Source of the DNA: a virus
Taxonomy: Duplodnaviria > Caudoviricetes
Length of the DNA stretch: 64,000 nucleotides
Direction: 5' to 3' (one strand)
Virus record (IMG/VR): IMGVR_UViG_3300028048_001497
Span: 96,001 to 160,000 of that record
The translations under genes and the position numbers were made by a program. The notes under the pieces were generated by a model that was given only the letters and a program-made list of their open reading frames with translations, was not told where the DNA came from and did no database searches. The stretch's first letter is position 1, and every line of letters starts with the position of its first letter. Positions 56,828 through 64,000 of the stretch are shown piece by piece.

Positions 56828-57106
56828 GTGAAGAAACATGAAATAGCAAAAAAGATTGCTAACCGTATGGACGGTTTAACATTACAACAGATTGAGGATT
56901 GTGTAGATTGCTTTTTTGAAGTATTAACAGAAGCACTTGCAGAGGGAGATTCCTTTAATCAGAAGAATTTTGGTACATTTAAATGCGTAGACCGCGCTCC
57001 ACGTAAAGGACGTAACCCACAGACACGTGAAGTAGTAGATATTCCTGCAACGAGAGCGTTAAAGGTTGTTGTATCAAAGAGCTTAAAAGATACGCTAAAC
57101 AAGTAA
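56828..57106 (+). CDS. HU/IHF family DNA-binding protein 2
   Basis: NFGTFKCVDRAPRKGRNPQT. GTG start after AGGTGA. Confidence 0.88.
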   Translation: MKKHEIAKKIANRMDGLTLQQIEDCVDCFFEVLTEALAEGDSFNQKNFGTFKCVDRAPRKGRNPQTREVVDIPATRALKVVVSKSLKDTLNK

Positions 57107-57264
57107 AATATTCAAAGACATATCATATAAATGGTATGTCTTTTTAGTTATGCAAATTGCAGATATGACAATAGAATAAATCTATGTTATTATTGAGAAA
57201 TAATAAAAATTACAGAATTGAGGTGAAAAAGGTAGGTGTGAAAACATAATTTTTATTATTTTGT

Positions 57265-57657
57265 ATGAGGAATGTTTTCCCCTACAAATTTAAAATGAAT
57301 AGTTCAAGATTTTTTGATGAAGAAGTGTTAGCTTGCCCGCATTGTGGTTGGCAACCAGATAATGGGATTAGTCGTAAATTATTAAGATTTTTAGATAAAT
57401 TACAAAAGCAAATAGATGAACCACTAAGCATAGCTTGTTGTGCTAGATGTGAAGAATACAATGATTTGGTTCATGGTTATGAAGATAGCTACCATATCAA
57501 GGGAAAAGCAGTTGATATTAATGTTCCTGATGATATGTATATAGATGAATTTGCCGATATTTGCGAAGAATGTGGTGCAGAAGGGATTGTTTTAAAGTAT
57601 GATGAAAATATTGTACACGTGGATATGCGTGGACAAAAGAAACGTTACGAAGAATAA
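57265..57657 (+). CDS. Peptidase M15A-like zinc peptidase
   Basis: ACPHCG, RCEEYN, SYHIKGKAVDI, VHVDMR. Start uncertain (57265 or 57295). Confidence 0.8.
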   Translation: MRNVFPYKFKMNSSRFFDEEVLACPHCGWQPDNGISRKLLRFLDKLQKQIDEPLSIACCARCEEYNDLVHGYEDSYHIKGKAVDINVPDDMYIDEFADICEECGAEGIVLKYDENIVHVDMRGQKKRYEE

Positions 57658-57764
57658 TCAATAGACCGTTATATCAATGCGATATGACGGTTTTTTGTTA
57701 TATTAAAATGATTTTGAAGTATAATATAGTTTAGATTGATAAAATTTGTTGGAGGAATTAAATT

Positions 57765-58100
57765 ATGAGCGTTCAGACATATTCAACAATGATAGTACCC
57801 AATTATAATGCAATTCAGTATTTTGATAATGTACCAAATAGTAAAAAATTCAAAATTTATACAGATAAAGAAAAAGAAGTACAAGGAAAATGTGTAACTT
57901 TTTTTGATGATAACAAAGGCGATGCACAAGAAATTATAAAAAATGCCAGTCAAATTTTAGATGCATTAGATAAAAAAGAAAACATTAATATTTTTAATGA
58001 ACAAGGCGTAGAATATACATTTGAAACAGAAAGAAAATTATATTTCTATGCAAAAAATGTAGAACATCCATTTAAAATTTATGTTGACATTGAAATTTAA
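57765..58100 (+). CDS. Hypothetical protein
   Basis: SD GGAGG, 111 aa. Confidence 0.7.
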   Translation: MSVQTYSTMIVPNYNAIQYFDNVPNSKKFKIYTDKEKEVQGKCVTFFDDNKGDAQEIIKNASQILDALDKKENINIFNEQGVEYTFETERKLYFYAKNVEHPFKIYVDIEI

Positions 58101-58101
58101 T

Positions 58102-58130
58102 TTGACTATTTTTTAAAAATGGGATATGAT
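58102..58130 (+). promoter_or_regulatory. Sigma70/SigA-like promoter of the gyrB locus
   Basis: TTGACT-17-TATGAT. Confidence 0.65.
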
Positions 58131-58161
58131 ATAGATATAAATATTGGAAGGAGAAAACCAT

Positions 58162-58227
58162 ATGAGTGATACCTTAAAAGTAAATAATGATTATGGTGTA
58201 AATAATGATTATGAGGTTGTAATATGA
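58162..58227 (+). pseudogene. Orphaned gyrB 5' end (21-codon mini-ORF)
   Basis: MSDTLKVNNDYGVN aligns with the GyrB start MSNKELQVNNRYGVN. SD GAAGGAG. ATGA overlap with the next gene. Confidence 0.7.
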
Positions 58228-59225
58228 TAATCACTAAAATTGTAACAAAAAGCTGGAATCCAAAAAACAAAAATTATTTTATTGATAAAGGCTATTCGTT
58301 TACAAAGATGTTTGATAAAATTAAAGTTAAAGTAAATGATTTGCCAAATAGTGATAAAAGTATAGTTGATTGTGAATGTAACCAATGCCATAAACATTTT
58401 ATAACTAAATATTATCGAGTTTATAATAATTGTTTATGTCAACAATGTAAAACAAAGATAACATATCAAAAAAAGTATGGTACAGACCATCCTATGAAGA
58501 ATAAACAATTTAAGAAAAAATTTGATAAATGTATTAAAGATAAATATGGTGTTGAAAATGTTTTTCAATTAGATTGTGTTAAAGAAAAAATTACAAAAAC
58601 GCTAATTAACAAATATGGTGTAGAACATCCATTACAAAACAAAAATATTTTAGAAAAAGAAAAGCAAACTAATCAGAAAAAATATGGTGTTGATTTTATA
58701 ATGCAAAATTCTGAAATGTTTAATAAATCTAAATCAACGTGTAAAAAACATTATAATGTTGATTCTCCATTAAAAAATAAAGATATTTTAAATAAACAAA
58801 GAAATACTATAAAAAATGGTTCTAAATATCAAAAATTAATTTGTCAATGGACAAATGGATTGTTTGATTATAAATTTTATCAGTATAAATTAGATATTGC
58901 TTTACTAGAAACAAAAACTGATATTGAATATGATGGTGGTGGGCATGATTTAGAAATTCAATTAAAGGGAAGTAGTTTACATGAATTTAAAATTAAAGAA
59001 AATGAACGCAATACTTTTTTAAACAAACACGGATGGAATGTTATTAGAATTGTATCTAAACATGACCGCTACATTAATAAAAACGATTTGCTTTTTTTAA
59101 TTCATATTTTAATTAACAAAAATATTAAATTAAGTATAATTAATATTGACAATGAAACTGTTGAATTTAATAATAAAACATTTTCATTTAACGATGTGTT
59201 GTTTAAAGGAGATAACAATGTCTAA
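58224..59225 (+). CDS. Free-standing endonuclease, Vsr/DUF559-like (EDxHD-type) with KYG repeats
   Basis: CxxC motifs, five KYGV/HYNV repeats, LDIAL...IEYDGGGHD...GWNVIRI. Confidence 0.8.
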   Translation: MIITKIVTKSWNPKNKNYFIDKGYSFTKMFDKIKVKVNDLPNSDKSIVDCECNQCHKHFITKYYRVYNNCLCQQCKTKITYQKKYGTDHPMKNKQFKKKFDKCIKDKYGVENVFQLDCVKEKITKTLINKYGVEHPLQNKNILEKEKQTNQKKYGVDFIMQNSEMFNKSKSTCKKHYNVDSPLKNKDILNKQRNTIKNGSKYQKLICQWTNGLFDYKFYQYKLDIALLETKTDIEYDGGGHDLEIQLKGSSLHEFKIKENERNTFLNKHGWNVIRIVSKHDRYINKNDLLFLIHILINKNIKLSIINIDNETVEFNNKTFSFNDVLFKGDNNV

Positions 59226-60979
59226 TAAAGAGTTACAAGTAAATAACAGATATGGTGTAAACCAAATTAAAATGTTGAAAGGTCTTGAAGCTGTAAGATG
59301 TAGAGCTTCTATGTACATTGGTTCTACGTCACAGTCAGGCATTGACCAACTTGTATATGAAATCATTGATAACTCTATTGATGAATTTGTAGCAGGTTGG
59401 GGTAATGAAGTAGATGTACACGTATATAAAGATTGTTCTGTAAAAGTTGTAGACCACGGCAGAGGTATTCCTGTTGGTAAAAGTGAAACGTTTAAAGACG
59501 AAGATGGTAATCCGATTGATACTTTGACAGGTATTCTTACAAATCTTCATGCAGGTGGTAAGTTTACATCTGATGGATACAAATGTTCATCGGGATTGCA
59601 CGGCGTTGGAAGTACATGTGTCAATGCATTATCTGATTCGTTTGACGTAATTGTTAAACGTGATGGATATACATGGCATCAACATTTTAGCGAAGGTAAT
59701 CCAACAACGGAAGTTGAAAAACTTGAACCAACTAAAGAAACAGGAACAATAATTAAATATCATCCTGATAAAAAGATTTTTAAATTAACATTACAACCTA
59801 GTGAACACATTAAACATCGTTTAAGTGAATTAGCTTCACTTAATGCAGGATTGAAAATTAATTATATTAATGAATTAACAGGAGATAATATTTCCTATCA
59901 TTTTGAAGATGGCATTACAGGATATACACTTCATATGATAGGTGATAAACAGAGATTGTATGATACTCCTTTTTCATTTGAAGATACATATGAAGAAGAA
60001 AATGGTCATGCAATTATGTGTGATATTTCATTTATCCACGATGATGAAACAGAACCTAATTCAAAACTAAAAAGTTTTGCAAATAACATTAATACTTATG
60101 AAGGTGGTTATCATCTTCAAGGTTTTAAAAACGGTTATAAAGATTGCATTAATAATTATGGCATCGAACGAAAACTTATTAAAGAACCTATTGAAATGCA
60201 ATATTTAATGGATGGTTTATATGCAACTATTTCTATTAAACTTTATCAACCGGAATTTGAAGGCCAAACAAAAACTAAATTAGGAAATAAAGAAGCCCAA
60301 GATGCAGTTGATTTTGTTATTCATAAATACTTTGAAAAAATTACAAAGCAAAAAAGCAAAAAAGAAATTCTTGATGCTATTGTAAATAGAGCAATCAAAG
60401 TAAAAGAAGCAGAATTAAATGCAAGAAAAGCTAGAGCAATTAGTCGAAAGTCTAAAAAACTTATGAAAACTAGTTTACCTGGTAAACTAGCAGATTGTTC
60501 TAATAAAAATGGATATACAGAATTGTGGATGTGCGAAGGTGATTCCGCAGCAGGAAGTATGAAAGAAGGACGAGAACGTTCATATCAAGCAGTATTAGGA
60601 TTAAGAGGTAAAATTCTTAATGTTAATAAGGCAGATATGAGTAAAATACTTGCTTCTGATACAATCAAAGGTATCGTTGCTTCTATTGGAGGTGGAATTG
60701 GGAAAACATTTAATTTGGATGATGTACGATATGATAAGATAATTATTGGCACAGATGCGGATGTGGACGGTGAGCATATAAGAACTCTAGTTCTTACATT
60801 GTTCTATTATTATATGCCAAAACTTATCGAATCGGGTCGTGTATATTCTGCACAACCACCACTTTATAGAATTATTAAAAAGAATAACGAATCTGTATAT
60901 TTATTAAGTGATTCAGAACTAAAAGAATATCGTAAAAAACATAAAGGTGAATCATATCAAGTAAACCGATTCAAAGGGT
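59218..60979 (+). CDS. gyrB: Type IIA topoisomerase subunit B, exon 1
   Basis: LKGLEAVR, EIIDNSIDE, DHGRGIP, GLHGVG, PGKLADC, EGDSA, LRGKILN, TDADVDG, ends RFKG. Start 59218 after AAGGAG. Confidence 0.95.
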
Positions 60980-61982
60980 GAGCGAAAAACTTGGCCCTCA
61001 CAGATTTTTCTATTTATCAGCAGGGTACACAATATAATGGTTGTGTGCTAACGGAACGAGCCTGACCGTGTAATGACGAAGGTAAGCCCGTGGGAACGAT
61101 TATATTTTTTCATTTTCACTTTATTTTACTTTTGAAGGTGGGGTGAAGTGAAATGAAAACAGGTGTATATAAAATAACAAACATTATAAATAAACAGTGC
61201 TATGTTGGAATTTCGTTAAATATTTTTAAACGTTGGAATACACATATTAATAATGTATATAATGATAATTGTCCTGAAAGTGACAAAGCATTGTATAAAG
61301 CCATGAGAAAATATGGTATTGAAAATTTTACTTTCCAAATTATTGAATTTTGTTCTGAAAATGAATTGCAACAAAAAGAAATTCAATGGATAAATCACTT
61401 CAATTCTTACAAAGATGGTTATAATGAAACTGTTGGTGGAGACATTGGTGGTTTTGAGAGGGGTGGAGATTTACATCCCAATCACAAATTAACTATTGAA
61501 GATGTTGTTGATATTCGTATGCGCTATGGCAAACTTGAACGAAAAAAAACGGTATATGAATTATATAGGAATAAAATTGGTAAAAGTGGTTTTGATAAAA
61601 TTTGGAATGGCGAAACTTGGAAAAATGTTATGATGGAAGTTTATACTAAAGAAAACAAACAACATCATAAAATTAATACAGGAAATTTGGGAGCTACAAA
61701 TGGTAGAGCCTTGCTGACTGTAGAACAAGTAAAAGATATTAGACAGCGAAAACGAAATGGTGAGAGTATCAAAACGGTGTTACACGACTACAAAGATGTT
61801 GTATCACAAAAATATTTATATAATGTTTGGAATGAATATACTTGGAAAGAAATATAATTGACCTGTATCGACTATCCCTCGGAAGGGGAGTAGGGGTGCT
61901 ATTGATACGTACCTCGAAAAGGTCTGACGGCTAGTAGCCGTTAAGAGATAGTCAGTGCTTATAGAAATATAAGGTAAACACG
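60980..61982 (+). ncRNA. Group I self-splicing intron (1003 nt)
   Basis: 5' exon ends in U and pairs AGGGU/GCCCU (P1). P7 is GACUA/UAGUC (R tatcgacta, S aagagatagtc). Terminal G. Removal restores RFKG-LGEMNP. Confidence 0.92.
61153..61857 (+). CDS. Intron-encoded GIY-YIG homing endonuclease
   Basis: GVYKITN...YVGIS...RW..H, GYNET, two C-terminal repeats (KLT..V.DIR...W). Confidence 0.9.
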   Translation: MKTGVYKITNIINKQCYVGISLNIFKRWNTHINNVYNDNCPESDKALYKAMRKYGIENFTFQIIEFCSENELQQKEIQWINHFNSYKDGYNETVGGDIGGFERGGDLHPNHKLTIEDVVDIRMRYGKLERKKTVYELYRNKIGKSGFDKIWNGETWKNVMMEVYTKENKQHHKINTGNLGATNGRALLTVEQVKDIRQRKRNGESIKTVLHDYKDVVSQKYLYNVWNEYTWKEI

Positions 61983-62173
61983 TAGGTGAAATGAATCCTG
62001 AACAATTAAAAGAAACAACAATGGATATTCATAATAGAACATTACGTAGAATTACACTTGAAGATGCCAAAGAAGTAGCAGAACTTTTTGAGACATTGAT
62101 GGGTAAAGATGTAACAAAACGCAAACAATTTATTGAAGCAAATTCTGATATGGTGGATTTGGAAGCACTATAA
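61983..62173 (+). CDS. gyrB: Type IIA topoisomerase subunit B, exon 2
   Basis: (L)GEMNPEQLKETTMD...LMG...RKQFI. Spliced CDS is 1953 nt, 650 aa. Confidence 0.93.
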
Positions 62174-62177
62174 AACT

Positions 62178-62211
62178 AAGGATAAGAGTAAAAATTACTC
62201 TTATCCTTTTT
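62178..62211 (+). terminator. Intrinsic terminator
   Basis: AAGGATAAGAGTAA / TTACTCTTATCCTT followed by a T-tract. Confidence 0.8.
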
Positions 62212-62289
62212 ATACAATAAATTAAGTGTTATTTTAAGATGTTTTAATTATTTTATATATAGAATAATAAATAAGGACGGTAGTAACAA

Positions 62290-62823
62290 ATGGCTGAGTT
62301 ATGGATTGCTATGGATATAGATGATGAATATGCAAAAAATCAATTAGCTTATTATCAAACTGTTTTAAAGGGTTATACTCATGGAGATTGGTGTGACCCT
62401 AATGATTTTCATATTACATTAGATTATATCGGTGAAAACGAAGATGATTTTGAAAAAGTAGTAGATGCTATGAAAATCTATGAAAAAGAAACGGATTTAT
62501 ATAATCAATATGTTTTTGGTAATAATGTTGGTCGTTTTGATGGCGGTGCTATGTGGATAGGTGTAGATGATAGTTTTAAATTATATCAGATACATTATCG
62601 TATAGAGGAATTATTAAAACAGGTTGGTTATCAAAAAGCTCCTAGCAAATTTCCTAATTATACACCACATATTACTATGGCTTTTAATACACCTAAAATG
62701 GATTTTTCTGTAAAAATGAGTAAAGTGCCGATTCCTGTTACGAATATTACTTTATGGAACTCATTTAAAGTAAATGGACAATATGTAGATAATTTTTTAT
62801 ATAAAATTAATTTGACGAAATGA
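62290..62823 (+). CDS. 2H phosphoesterase (ThpR/LigT-like)
   Basis: Two HxT motifs: FHITL and PHITM. Confidence 0.88.
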   Translation: MAELWIAMDIDDEYAKNQLAYYQTVLKGYTHGDWCDPNDFHITLDYIGENEDDFEKVVDAMKIYEKETDLYNQYVFGNNVGRFDGGAMWIGVDDSFKLYQIHYRIEELLKQVGYQKAPSKFPNYTPHITMAFNTPKMDFSVKMSKVPIPVTNITLWNSFKVNGQYVDNFLYKINLTK

Positions 62824-62836
62824 AAGAAGATTTATT

Positions 62837-63037
62837 ATGAATCAAGAATTGACTAGAAGTAAACATAAGCATGAGTATAGTAATGCAGGATTATACAATT
62901 GTCCTCATTGTCAACATATGTTTGAAGGAGAACAAGCATTACATGATATTTGTGCTAATTGTATGGGTGGAGACAAATATTTGGAGAAACCATTAACGGA
63001 TTTTGAAAAATTATTTAATCGTTTACAACGGAATTAA
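62837..63037 (+). CDS. Small zinc-ribbon protein
   Basis: CPHC...CANC. Confidence 0.6.
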   Translation: MNQELTRSKHKHEYSNAGLYNCPHCQHMFEGEQALHDICANCMGGDKYLEKPLTDFEKLFNRLQRN

Positions 63038-63080
63038 AAGGAAGTTATAGCACTTCCTTTTTTTCACAAATAATTTTTAG

Positions 63081-63110
63081 TTGACGATTTTATTCTTTTT
63101 GTGCTACAAT
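63081..63110 (+). promoter_or_regulatory. Sigma70/SigA-like promoter of gyrA
   Basis: TTGACG-18-TACAAT with extended TG, just after a terminator at ~63036-63064. Confidence 0.6.
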
Positions 63111-63144
63111 ATTGCTAAACAAAGAATGGAGGATAATATAGATT

Positions 63145-64000
63145 ATGGCAAAAAAACAAAAAGAAGATATAGAATCTTTGGTCGCAGAAGAAAATATTAT
63201 TGATTGTGATTTAAGAGACGAATTGCCACGTTCATACATGGATTATACTATGTTATCTATTATTGGACGTGCTTTGCCTGATATTCGTGATGGATTAAAA
63301 CCTGTTCAACGTAGAATTTTATATTGTTGCAAAGAAAAAGGCTATGATAGCAATAAGCAATATATTAAGAACGCTAAAATTAGTGGTGACGTAATGGGTA
63401 ATTATCATCCACACAGTTCTTGTTATGGTACAGTTGCTAATATGGCTCAACCGTGGGTATATCGTTATCCACTTATTGACTTTCATGGGAACGTTGGTTC
63501 AATTGATGGTGATTCACCTGCAAGTGAACGTTATACCGAAGGACGTTTAGCTAAAACGTCTTATGCAATTTTAGAAGATGTGTTAGATAAGCATTGTGTA
63601 GAATTTAGGGATAATTATTCTGAAACATTAAAAGAACCAGTTATTTTACCAGGTCTATTTCCTAATTTTTTAGCAAACGGTTGTCCAAATGCTATTGCAG
63701 TAGGTTATACATCTTGTGTTCCATCACATAATCTAAATGAAGTATGTGACGGTATCATTTATGCAATTAAGCATAAAGATTTTACGCTAGATGATATTTT
63801 AAAGATTATTAAAGGACCAGATTTCCCTTATGGTGGTATGATGCTTAAAAAAGGTATCAAATCACTTTATGAAACAGGCGAAGGTTCTTTATCTTTTAGA
63901 GCTAATTACAAAATTGAAAATAATGCAGAAAATGGTAATCCACAGATTGTATTTACAGATATGCCACCGTTTTCTGATAAACCAAAACTGATTGAAAAAA
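63145..64000 (+). CDS. gyrA: Type IIA topoisomerase subunit A (runs off the window; absent from the ORF track)
   Basis: Manual translation from ATG 63145 (SD GGAGG): RALPDIRDGLKPVQRRIL, YHPH, GNVGSIDGD, catalytic ERYTE, GPDFP. Confidence 0.93.
   Translation, partial: MAKKQKEDIESLVAEENIIDCDLRDELPRSYMDYTMLSIIGRALPDIRDGLKPVQRRILYCCKEKGYDSNKQYIKNAKISGDVMGNYHPHSSCYGTVANMAQPWVYRYPLIDFHGNVGSIDGDSPASERYTEGRLAKTSYAILEDVLDKHCVEFRDNYSETLKEPVILPGLFPNFLANGCPNAIAVGYTSCVPSHNLNEVCDGIIYAIKHKDFTLDDILKIIKGPDFPYGGMMLKKGIKSLYETGEGSLSFRANYKIENNAENGNPQIVFTDMPPFSDKPKLIEK

Follow-up and report, generated by a model that had tools for sequence, protein, structure and literature searches.

In T4-type phages, the homing endonuclease MobA is encoded by a free-standing gene that lies inside the coding sequence of a GyrB-type topoisomerase (gene 60), with neither an intron nor an intein around it. 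The MobA element has a new downstream start together with a diverged segment, HomR (67-81% DNA identity), that replaces the coding sequence of the target site (bioRxiv 10.1101/2022.08.31.505936, on Bonocora et al. 2011; see also PMC2988022). Between this new start and the endonuclease open reading frame (ORF) there is an overlap of 8-32 nt in different reading frames. Pseudogenes of the endonuclease are frequent in elements that are otherwise retained, and 'hit and run' alleles have been described (bioRxiv 10.1101/2022.08.31.505936). Mitochondrial mobile ORFs replace the 3' ends of genes, as in atp6 of Allomyces macrogynus and in atp6, atp9, cox2 and nad3 of Glomus (PMC3630166): the endonuclease ORF comes with a foreign, diverged gene end that is expressed, and the native end adjoins as an unused duplicate. 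Here we analyse the 5' end of gyrB in a 64,000-nt stretch of viral DNA (positions 96,001 to 160,000 of the IMG/VR record IMGVR_UViG_3300028048_001497, Caudoviricetes; hereafter the window), which comes from a single-contig assembly of 174.5 kb with 29% G+C and a phage-like appearance, the host being described as a gut phage. We consider it likely that the first codons of this gyrB harbour a composite homing cassette that needs no intron or intein.

By analogy, the MobA/gene 60 cassette is the nearest known case, and the overlap between the endonuclease ORF and the new start, which is 8 nt in the gyrB cassette, is of the same kind. However, MobA is an HNH enzyme, whereas the nuclease of the gyrB cassette is Vsr-like and has DUF7487 repeats. 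MobA splits its gene in the Toprim domain into two working polypeptides, while the gyrB cassette sits at codon 14 and the piece upstream of it is an apparently functionless 21-codon ORF. The replaced stretch is deleted by MobA but kept as a duplicate in the gyrB cassette, with no bypass element, and the protection from self-cleavage, shown in T4 to need a bypass insert, is presumed here. With regard to the mitochondrial mobile ORFs, which replace the C-terminal end and have the foreign end upstream of the endonuclease ORF, the gyrB cassette is a mirror image: the N-terminal end is replaced, hence the cassette must bring translation-initiation signals. The mitochondrial enzymes belong to the LAGLIDADG or GIY-YIG families and reside in organelles, in contrast to the Vsr-like nuclease in a phage. 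Since the nuclease family, the gene end and the insertion site differ, MobA and the mitochondrial ORFs are analogies and not instances of common descent. In the intronless homing of T4 (SegF, SegG, MobE), the endonuclease gene likewise stands beside a conserved essential gene and flanking markers spread along (PMC2988022, PMC2790892); the mobE start overlaps the stop of the preceding ORF (UAAUGA), which has been interpreted as expression-limiting coupling, and the gyrB cassette has a similar overlap (ATGA). These genes, however, lie between genes and cut the neighbouring one; they are not inside a coding sequence and have no gene-end duplication. No phage case of 5'-end replacement was found in the searched literature.

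The proposed cassette would read in the following order (Table 1): the gyrB promoter and leader; the first 14 native codons, which have become a dead-end mini-ORF; the endonuclease gene; and a new Shine-Dalgarno (SD) sequence, ATG and diverged GyrB start. This diverged copy would cover GyrB codons 1 to ~28, inside and just after the 3' end of the endonuclease gene. The initial annotation, drawn from the letters of the window, had noted these parts, and all of them were found: the mini-ORF with its SD and upstream promoter-like site; a perfect 16-nt direct repeat GTAAATAATGATTATG (58180-58195 and 58198-58213), which lies inside an 18-nt duplication; the ATGA at 58224-58227, where the mini-ORF stop overlaps the endonuclease start; and the endonuclease 3' end, the last 20 nt of which hold both AGGAG and the gyrB ATG, the endonuclease stop (TAA, 59223-25) following 3 nt after that ATG. 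The endonuclease ORF is out of the gyrB reading frame and is flanked by a 29-nt direct repeat, 83% identical (58174-58202 and 59233-59261). The promoter was called because TTGACT-17-TAnnAT is conserved before gyrB in endonuclease-free relatives (TTGACT-17-TAAAAT in L003 and L009, where L numbers denote the loci compared), and not from a scan, since promoter-like hexamers show no enrichment in the scan (34 found vs 33.6 expected in shuffles). The mini-ORF had also been taken for a diverged copy of the GyrB start. Its nt 7-41 (58168-58202) are identical in 35 of 35 positions to GATACCTTAAAAGTAAATAATGATTATGGTGTAAA, the true gyrB 5' end of L009, and so the similarity is not due to chance; the first 41 nt (14 codons) of the mini-ORF are read from this alignment as the stranded native gyrB start. 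After 21 codons the native copy reaches a stop, while the diverged copy has a separate SD and ATG, leads into a GyrB that is otherwise 97% identical, and would be the expressed one.

Table 1. Features of the gyrB locus, in window coordinates.
Feature	Position	Strand	Evidence or remark
Upstream gene, 111 aa, DUF2812-like	57765..58100	+	Pfam PF11193, 3.7e-07
Promoter-like site TTGACT-17-TATGAT ahead of the mini-ORF	58102..58130	+	10/12 consensus matches
SD of the mini-ORF, AAGGAG	58148-53	+	ATG 8 nt downstream
Mini-ORF, 21 codons, MSDTLKVNNDYGVNNDYEVVI and stop	ATG 58162 to TGA 58227	+	sequence, ORF list
Imperfect 18-nt tandem duplication, left junction of the cassette	58180..58213	+	repeat family D6
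SD of the endonuclease, GAGG	58213-16	+	weak, 7 nt before the endonuclease ATG
Endonuclease ORF, 333 aa	58224..59225	+	ends ...AAAGGAGATAACAATGTCTAA
Two promoter-like sites in the endonuclease 3' end	59113..59174	+	11/12 consensus matches each
Replacement gyrB start: SD AGGAG 59207-11, ATG 59218, codons MSNKELQVNNRYGVN...	59207..59300	+	
gyrB exon 1 (ATPase, transducer, Toprim)	59218..60979	+	Pfam HATPase_c, DNA_gyraseB, Toprim
Group I intron with a GIY-YIG ORF	60980..61982	+	comparison with intron-free L001; Pfam GIY-YIG
gyrB exon 2 (GyrB C-terminal domain)	61983..62173	+	Pfam DNA_gyraseB_C 1.5e-18

Relatives of the locus were collected by GyrB and by the endonuclease, and three states were seen. 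The nearest named GyrB is that of Bacillus phage G (52%), and megablast of the region against phage records gave no match. The endonuclease gene is absent at the locus in L003/L005/L006, L009, L001, L002, L007 and L010. Among these, the relatives with 96-97% GyrB identity start with MSDTLKVNN(D/R)YGVNQ: L009 (96%) and P0135 start with MSDTLKVNNDYGVNQIKML (also given as MSDTLKVNNDYGVNQ), and L003/L005/L006 (97%) with MSDTLKVNNRYGVNQIKML (also given as MSDTLKVNNRYGVNQ). More distant endonuclease-free relatives (76-77%) start with MASTKVTDDYGVKQ... As the initial annotation had predicted, endonuclease-free relatives thus begin like the mini-ORF, exactly or nearly so, and not with MSNKELQ. In L004/L008 (88% GyrB identity), a 50% identical homologue of the endonuclease stands free between the upstream gene and gyrB, with neither a mini-ORF remnant nor a flanking duplication. 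The MSNKELQ start occurs in 27 loci (19 distinct sequences), the window and 26 others; in all 27 the endonuclease gene, intact or broken, lies directly upstream and the 8-nt endonuclease/gyrB overlap, ATGTCTAA, is the same. Fragment look-ups found no contig that has an MSNKELQ-type GyrB fragment and lacks the endonuclease gene, and a search of IMG/VR with the endonuclease protein and the MSNKELQ 5' sequence gave no match. These comparisons show that the native gyrB start is stranded and the putative functional start foreign, the latter having been found in no locus without the endonuclease gene. The assembly from which the window is taken is of the metagenome type, and a chimeric contig could have duplicated the gyrB start. 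The probability of such an assembly or sequencing artefact is close to negligible, as the same junctions recur, with slight differences in sequence, in 27 loci obtained by several studies and assemblers independently of each other (ENA, Logan, JGI).

All carriers that reach far enough to the left have an in-frame mini-ORF ending in ATGA. Four sequence variants of it with amino-acid changes (L to T, Y to C) were seen, so that the peptide varies freely while the ATGA overlap is retained; the sole indel is of +3 nt, which is suggestive of a conserved frame, though it is one event. In the endonuclease gene, by contrast with the new start, decay is common. The most frequent carrier variant, present in at least 17 contigs (the L012 type; L012:2416-2480, also L013-L016 and L028-L032), has an extra A at endonuclease codon 14, with A7 instead of A6 in the run CCAAAAAAC, leading to a stop at codon 21. 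The enzyme of this variant may be either dead or restored to a low level by slippage on the A-run. Other broken carriers have two frameshifts or an in-frame stop in the endonuclease, and the MSNKELQ start is kept in all. The comparison thus shows that in many carriers the predicted endonuclease gene has decayed whereas the new start persists.

The cassette has also moved between genomes. Compared with the carriers L011, L012, L019 and L020, the window is 63-89% identical to the left of about 58050, with 63-81% DNA identity in the upstream gene as far as about 58100, and 98-100% identical from 58116 to 59587, a block that includes the promoter, the mini-ORF, the endonuclease and the first ~370 nt of gyrB. 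The boundary is sharp, at about 58100, immediately ahead of the promoter; the exchanged block is bounded on the left by the 3' end of the upstream gene, whose protein is ~60% identical to its counterpart in other carriers. Further into gyrB, the window resembles the endonuclease-free L003 (98%) more than L011 (92%), and the same cassette precedes gyrB genes that vary in build, as inteins are present in some and absent from others, and likewise the C-terminal intron. Because 98-100% identity is found between genomes with such diverged left flanks, the comparison shows that the block from the promoter to the gyrB 5' end moves as a unit between diverged genomes; and because identity jumps just upstream of the promoter, the mini-ORF of the window is not a relic of its own gyrB but arrived with the cassette.

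Traces of repair are seen at the junction. Carriers differ from L009 by 11 substitutions confined to offsets -4 to +49 around TATGGTG, in the window ending near 59300, and followed by identity up to +64; these turn AAT GAT into AAC AGA and ACT into TGT, and include five synonymous changes. This patch and the MSNKELQ start travel with the endonuclease gene, as expected of co-conversion. The endonuclease-free L003 carries the patch from offset -14 rightward, lacks the MSNKELQ codons, and is L009-like to the left of GTAAATAA. Given such rightward and leftward affinities, L003 is a chimera with a crossover in the short repeat that the remnant and the functional copy have in common, and its pattern would fit double-strand-break repair at the junction. 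Such alleles could be endonuclease-free products of the same repair, in which a cut was repaired from the donor's gyrB copy only (co-conversion without the endonuclease gene), or could result from later loss of the endonuclease between the two AAGTAAATAA copies. At the left junction, the remnant ends with ...GGTGTAAA, and the cassette then begins with the second GTAAATAATGATTATG. We can only speculate that this junction arose through a GTAAA (5-nt) join of a broken L009-type end with a donor holding an older, shorter remnant, or, alternatively, through slippage.

From these results, a mechanism of homing may be proposed. The enzyme would cut L009-type endonuclease-free alleles near ...AATGATTATGGTGTAAA/CCAAAT, and repair would copy the cassette; the prototype of the Vsr-like homing family likewise cuts beside its insertion site (PMC3239194). 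Carriers would be immune, as the right half of the site is missing from the remnant, and the functional copy would resist through AACAGA for AATGAT and further substitutions; it is the clustering of the substitutions that suggests such resistance, which the initial annotation had also proposed. Several observations weigh against this proposal. Both the target site and the immunity mechanism are deduced from the alignments. The functional copy in carriers keeps TATGGTGTAAACCAAAT unchanged, and immunity must therefore come from changes 9-12 nt and further off the presumed cut, while the specificity of I-Bth0305I is concentrated in the central 14 bp (PMC3239194). The 18-nt duplication at the left junction is without a demonstrated origin, and the conservation of the mini-ORF frame amounts to a single indel. 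The searches did not reveal the donor lineage, in which the MSNKELQ start would occur without a remnant, nor an endonuclease-free MSNKELQ allele or a remnant-free carrier at >50% identity. Finally, the carriers are all metagenome contigs, and the viability of the variants with a broken endonuclease is assumed.

The same observations leave some room for ordinary illegitimate recombination or duplication, with the nuclease being a passenger or a domesticated gene that neither targets gyrB nor drives the spread. This would be compatible with targeting and spread by cleavage being a matter of deduction, with the many carriers that keep the layout around a broken endonuclease gene, and with the highly mosaic character of this phage group, in which inteins and introns come and go in gyrB. 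Nevertheless, we regard it as quite unlikely: the foreign start and the nuclease gene are strictly linked, a homologue with 50% identity is present at this intergenic site in another lineage, and a sharp identity boundary lies beside the cassette. Moreover, the substitution patch is centred on the junction, where the crossover of the endonuclease-free chimera also lies, the annotation and the distribution of the family are those of free-standing homing endonucleases, and decay after fixation is the expected life cycle of such enzymes. The composite homing cassette thus remains the preferred explanation. Two sequence similarities at the locus were noted separately. Positions 58603-58627, in an endonuclease repeat unit (..NKYGVEH..), resemble 59240-59264 in the gyrB start (..NRYGVNQ..) over 25 nt (84% similar), which may be chance in AT-rich DNA or microhomology that aided the original illegitimate insertion. 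A pseudo-palindrome centred on the junction, TGGT-GTAA-ACCA, was given no weight, as by a rough estimate a 4+4 match is expected by chance about once per five such stretches.

The 333-aa protein matches Pfam DUF7487 (1.5e-21) and, weakly, DUF559, as well as PHROG 12131 'homing endonuclease' (2.4e-32) and PHROG 3339, which has the same annotation. It begins with a CxxC...CxxC zinc ribbon, which is followed in the middle by about five helical repeats of 23 aa (DUF7487) and at the C-terminus by a Vsr-like nuclease domain. The four cysteines of the ribbon, C52, C55, C72 and C75 according to the alignment and the AlphaFold (AF2) model, are invariant in the family. The model, built from 34 homologues, has a mean confidence score (pLDDT) of 90. 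Its residues ~196-317 superimpose on the Vsr endonuclease (Z 11.3, root-mean-square deviation (rmsd) 2.9 Å, 118 aligned), the DUF559 protein 3HRL (Z 9.2, rmsd 2.1 Å, 84 aligned) and the catalytic domain of I-Bth0305I (3R3P; Z 8.5, rmsd 3.0 Å, 90 aligned), the next unrelated rows of the fold search being at Z <=5.9. In the alignment of the 34 family members D237 and H241 are invariant and E235 is present in at least 90%; in the window protein D242 follows H241 (IEYDGGGHD). According to the model, the protein is a Vsr-like nuclease of the fold used by homing endonucleases. The phage-borne EDxHD/Vsr-like enzymes (I-Bth0305I, PDB 3R3P; PMC3239194; Dassa et al., PMC2677866) likewise have a C-terminal catalytic domain with conserved E/D/H/D, and a multi-module DNA-binding part N-terminal to the nuclease. 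However, the N-terminus of I-Bth0305I is of the NUMOD/HTH (helix-turn-helix) type, while the 333-aa protein has the zinc ribbon and DUF7487 repeats, with no NUMOD module detected by Pfam; and genes of the I-Bth0305I type are intron- or intein-borne, whereas that of the gyrB cassette is free-standing. As phmmer against all PDB chains, including 3R3P, gave no relevant match at E up to 1, the relation to I-Bth0305I is at the level of the fold only.

The endonuclease family gave 332 matches, and its members in the sampled contexts are free-standing, between phage genes. Relatives in phage records are annotated as putative homing endonucleases, for instance F-LimIII of the Dickeya LIMEstone phages and a protein of Lactococcus phage AM1. 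No paper on DUF7487 was found, and there is no characterised member in the searched literature. None of five other family members (L038, L040, L042, L008 and the in-genome paralogue L037) is flanked by a gene-end duplication, hence the latter is specific to the gyrB cassette and not a habit of the family. The paralogue is a second DUF7487/Vsr-like endonuclease gene of the same genome (G000:C1:35751-36638, L037:2252-3139; 295 aa, 31% identical); it lies just after a 281-aa ORF (L037:1356-2201) and overlaps the start of a 338-aa ORF with a CxxC..H..H motif, without a flanking gene-end duplication.

A replacement N-terminus that functions without splicing had been part of the initial annotation, and this agrees with our results, as the locus has neither the room nor the splice signals for an intron. 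Were the endonuclease gene in a self-splicing intron, or in some other spliced or bypassed element, GyrB would begin at the mini-ORF start and be joined to codon 15 (MSDTLKVNNDYGVN/QIKML...), and joining 58202 to 59262 does give the exact L009-type N-terminus. Yet the sequence available to an intron amounts to 21 nt ahead of the endonuclease ORF and 0 nt behind it, and this ORF aligns end to end with free-standing homologues, including the intergenic copy in L008. In group I introns the 5' exon ends with U and the intron with G. A splice restoring ...TATGGTGTAAACC would cut two copies of one sequence at the same position, making the exon and intron ends identical; a junction inside the shared TATGGTGTAAA therefore breaks the U/G rule, because the exon and the intron get the same last base. 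The downstream copy is equipped with a separate SD and ATG, and its N-terminus, a different one, is conserved in 27 loci; RNA folding around the two overlaps revealed no excess structure (z-scores 0.15 and -0.57), for which reason the idea of an SD-masking hairpin was also dropped. Rfam scans (window 57000-64000 and L009/L005; E up to 1) found no intron family, but Rfam also missed the genuine intron in the same gene, a point on the side of the spliced alternative, and so this negative weighs little for the 5' cassette. Altogether, an intron is very unlikely here, and any spliced or bypassed element has only a very small probability.

The gyrB insert at 60980-61982 behaves differently and is, judged by its boundaries, a genuine group I intron, a second and independent invasion of gyrB. 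Its 5' splice site follows GGGT at 60979, it ends with G, and its P1 helix is AGGGU/GCCCU; intron-free L001 reads AAAGGGT/TAGGTGAA, and joining exon 1 to exon 2 restores KGLGEMNP, matching L001. The Pfam match to the GyrB C-terminal domain (61991-62173) accordingly stands apart from the remainder of the gene. The GIY-YIG endonuclease ORF (61153-61857) sits in an intron loop, and ORF-less versions of ~230-270 nt with a conserved core occur in L003, L009, L008, L002 and L007; none of these gyrB introns was detected by Rfam 15 at E up to 1. A ribozyme core, U...G boundaries and a restored frame are thus found at this site, but not in the 5' endonuclease cassette.

As to expression, transcription would start from the gyrB promoter captured with the remnant, and the two sites in the endonuclease 3' end (TTAACA-16-TATAAT and TTGACA-17-AATAAT), which are consensus matches only, could drive or add to gyrB transcription. 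The strongest SD is that of the mini-ORF (AAGGAG), which probably sets a low, coupled translation of the endonuclease through the ATGA overlap, while a separate SD would serve the translation of GyrB. In GyrB, an N-terminal arm, with Tyr5 in E. coli, extends to the ATP site of the other subunit. Here Y12 corresponds to Tyr5 by its spacing to the IKxLxGLEAVR motif, and YG(V/T)xQI is conserved in the family; the insertion point thus removes a needed N-terminal segment, for which the cassette supplies a replacement. The initial annotation had proposed a homing cassette that survives by capturing expression signals through translational coupling. The cassette is supported, but coupling of gyrB to the endonuclease is not required, since many relatives with a frameshifted or stopped endonuclease gene keep the layout and the gyrB start. 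Coupling of the endonuclease to the mini-ORF is plausible from the layout, and in T4 such a start/stop overlap has been interpreted as restraining endonuclease synthesis (PMC2988022). A further idea, tentative and in our estimate rather unlikely, is that the stranded gyrB start serves as an operator or leader that limits the synthesis of the endonuclease, possibly also that of GyrB: as an operator, because the left half of the target is kept between the shared promoter and the endonuclease ATG, and as a leader, because its translation would end on that ATG. I-TevI, to which the proposed operator role may be likened, represses its own promoter through a look-alike of its homing site. If this were true, an insertion scar would have become a control region, which would explain why the scar travels in frame with the cassette.

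Other mobile elements were observed in and around gyrB of the relatives, and this gene is a hot spot for them. An intein-like insert follows ...GYKC in the ATPase domain and is cut into two ORFs (L009:480-960; L011:6360-7880; L008:4490-6000). In L011 and L008 a separate ORF of 349-352 aa, the C-terminus of which (..VIEVMGDYWH..) looks Vsr/DUF559-like, lies between the intein halves, resembling the 'fractured gene' layout of a split intein with a Vsr-like endonuclease (PMC2677866). The Toprim region of L011 harbours a second intein, one that includes an HNH domain, and in L009 an insert without an ORF is present at GTDAD/VDGEH. In L003 (4297-5541), a 414-aa ORF that starts with MVYVLSKTGQPVMPT, has RRxRR-like and HNH motifs and looks IscB-like abuts the DUF2812-like gene from upstream; it is absent at that place in the window. 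Downstream of gyrB, a GyrA-type gene starts at 63145, and the interval between the two encodes a 177-aa 2H-phosphoesterase (62290-62823; Pfam 2_5_RNA_ligase2, LigT_PEase) that all relatives share. Its match to the anti-CBASS protein Acb1 is below threshold (24.3 bits, cut-off 27), and a role as a cyclic-nucleotide-degrading counter-defence gene is possible.

The principle of occupying an essential gene in this manner is already known from MobA/gene 60 of T4-type phages and from the mitochondrial mobile ORFs at gene 3' ends. What differs here is the extreme 5' position, the imported initiation signals, the native start retained as a predicted translated leader, and the nuclease family. The loci form a natural series of states, from free alleles inferred to be of the sensitive type, through free chimeric alleles and intact carriers, to decaying carriers. 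For the widespread and uncharacterised DUF7487/Vsr-like family, a predicted target site is gained. For annotation, the consequence is that gene callers would present gyrB as normal, with the foreign origin of its first codons going unnoticed, and might list the remnant as a small protein. Besides introns and inteins, the gyrB cassette would represent a third way for a homing endonuclease to live inside an essential gene, namely to replace the start of the gene and to bring the translation signals with it.

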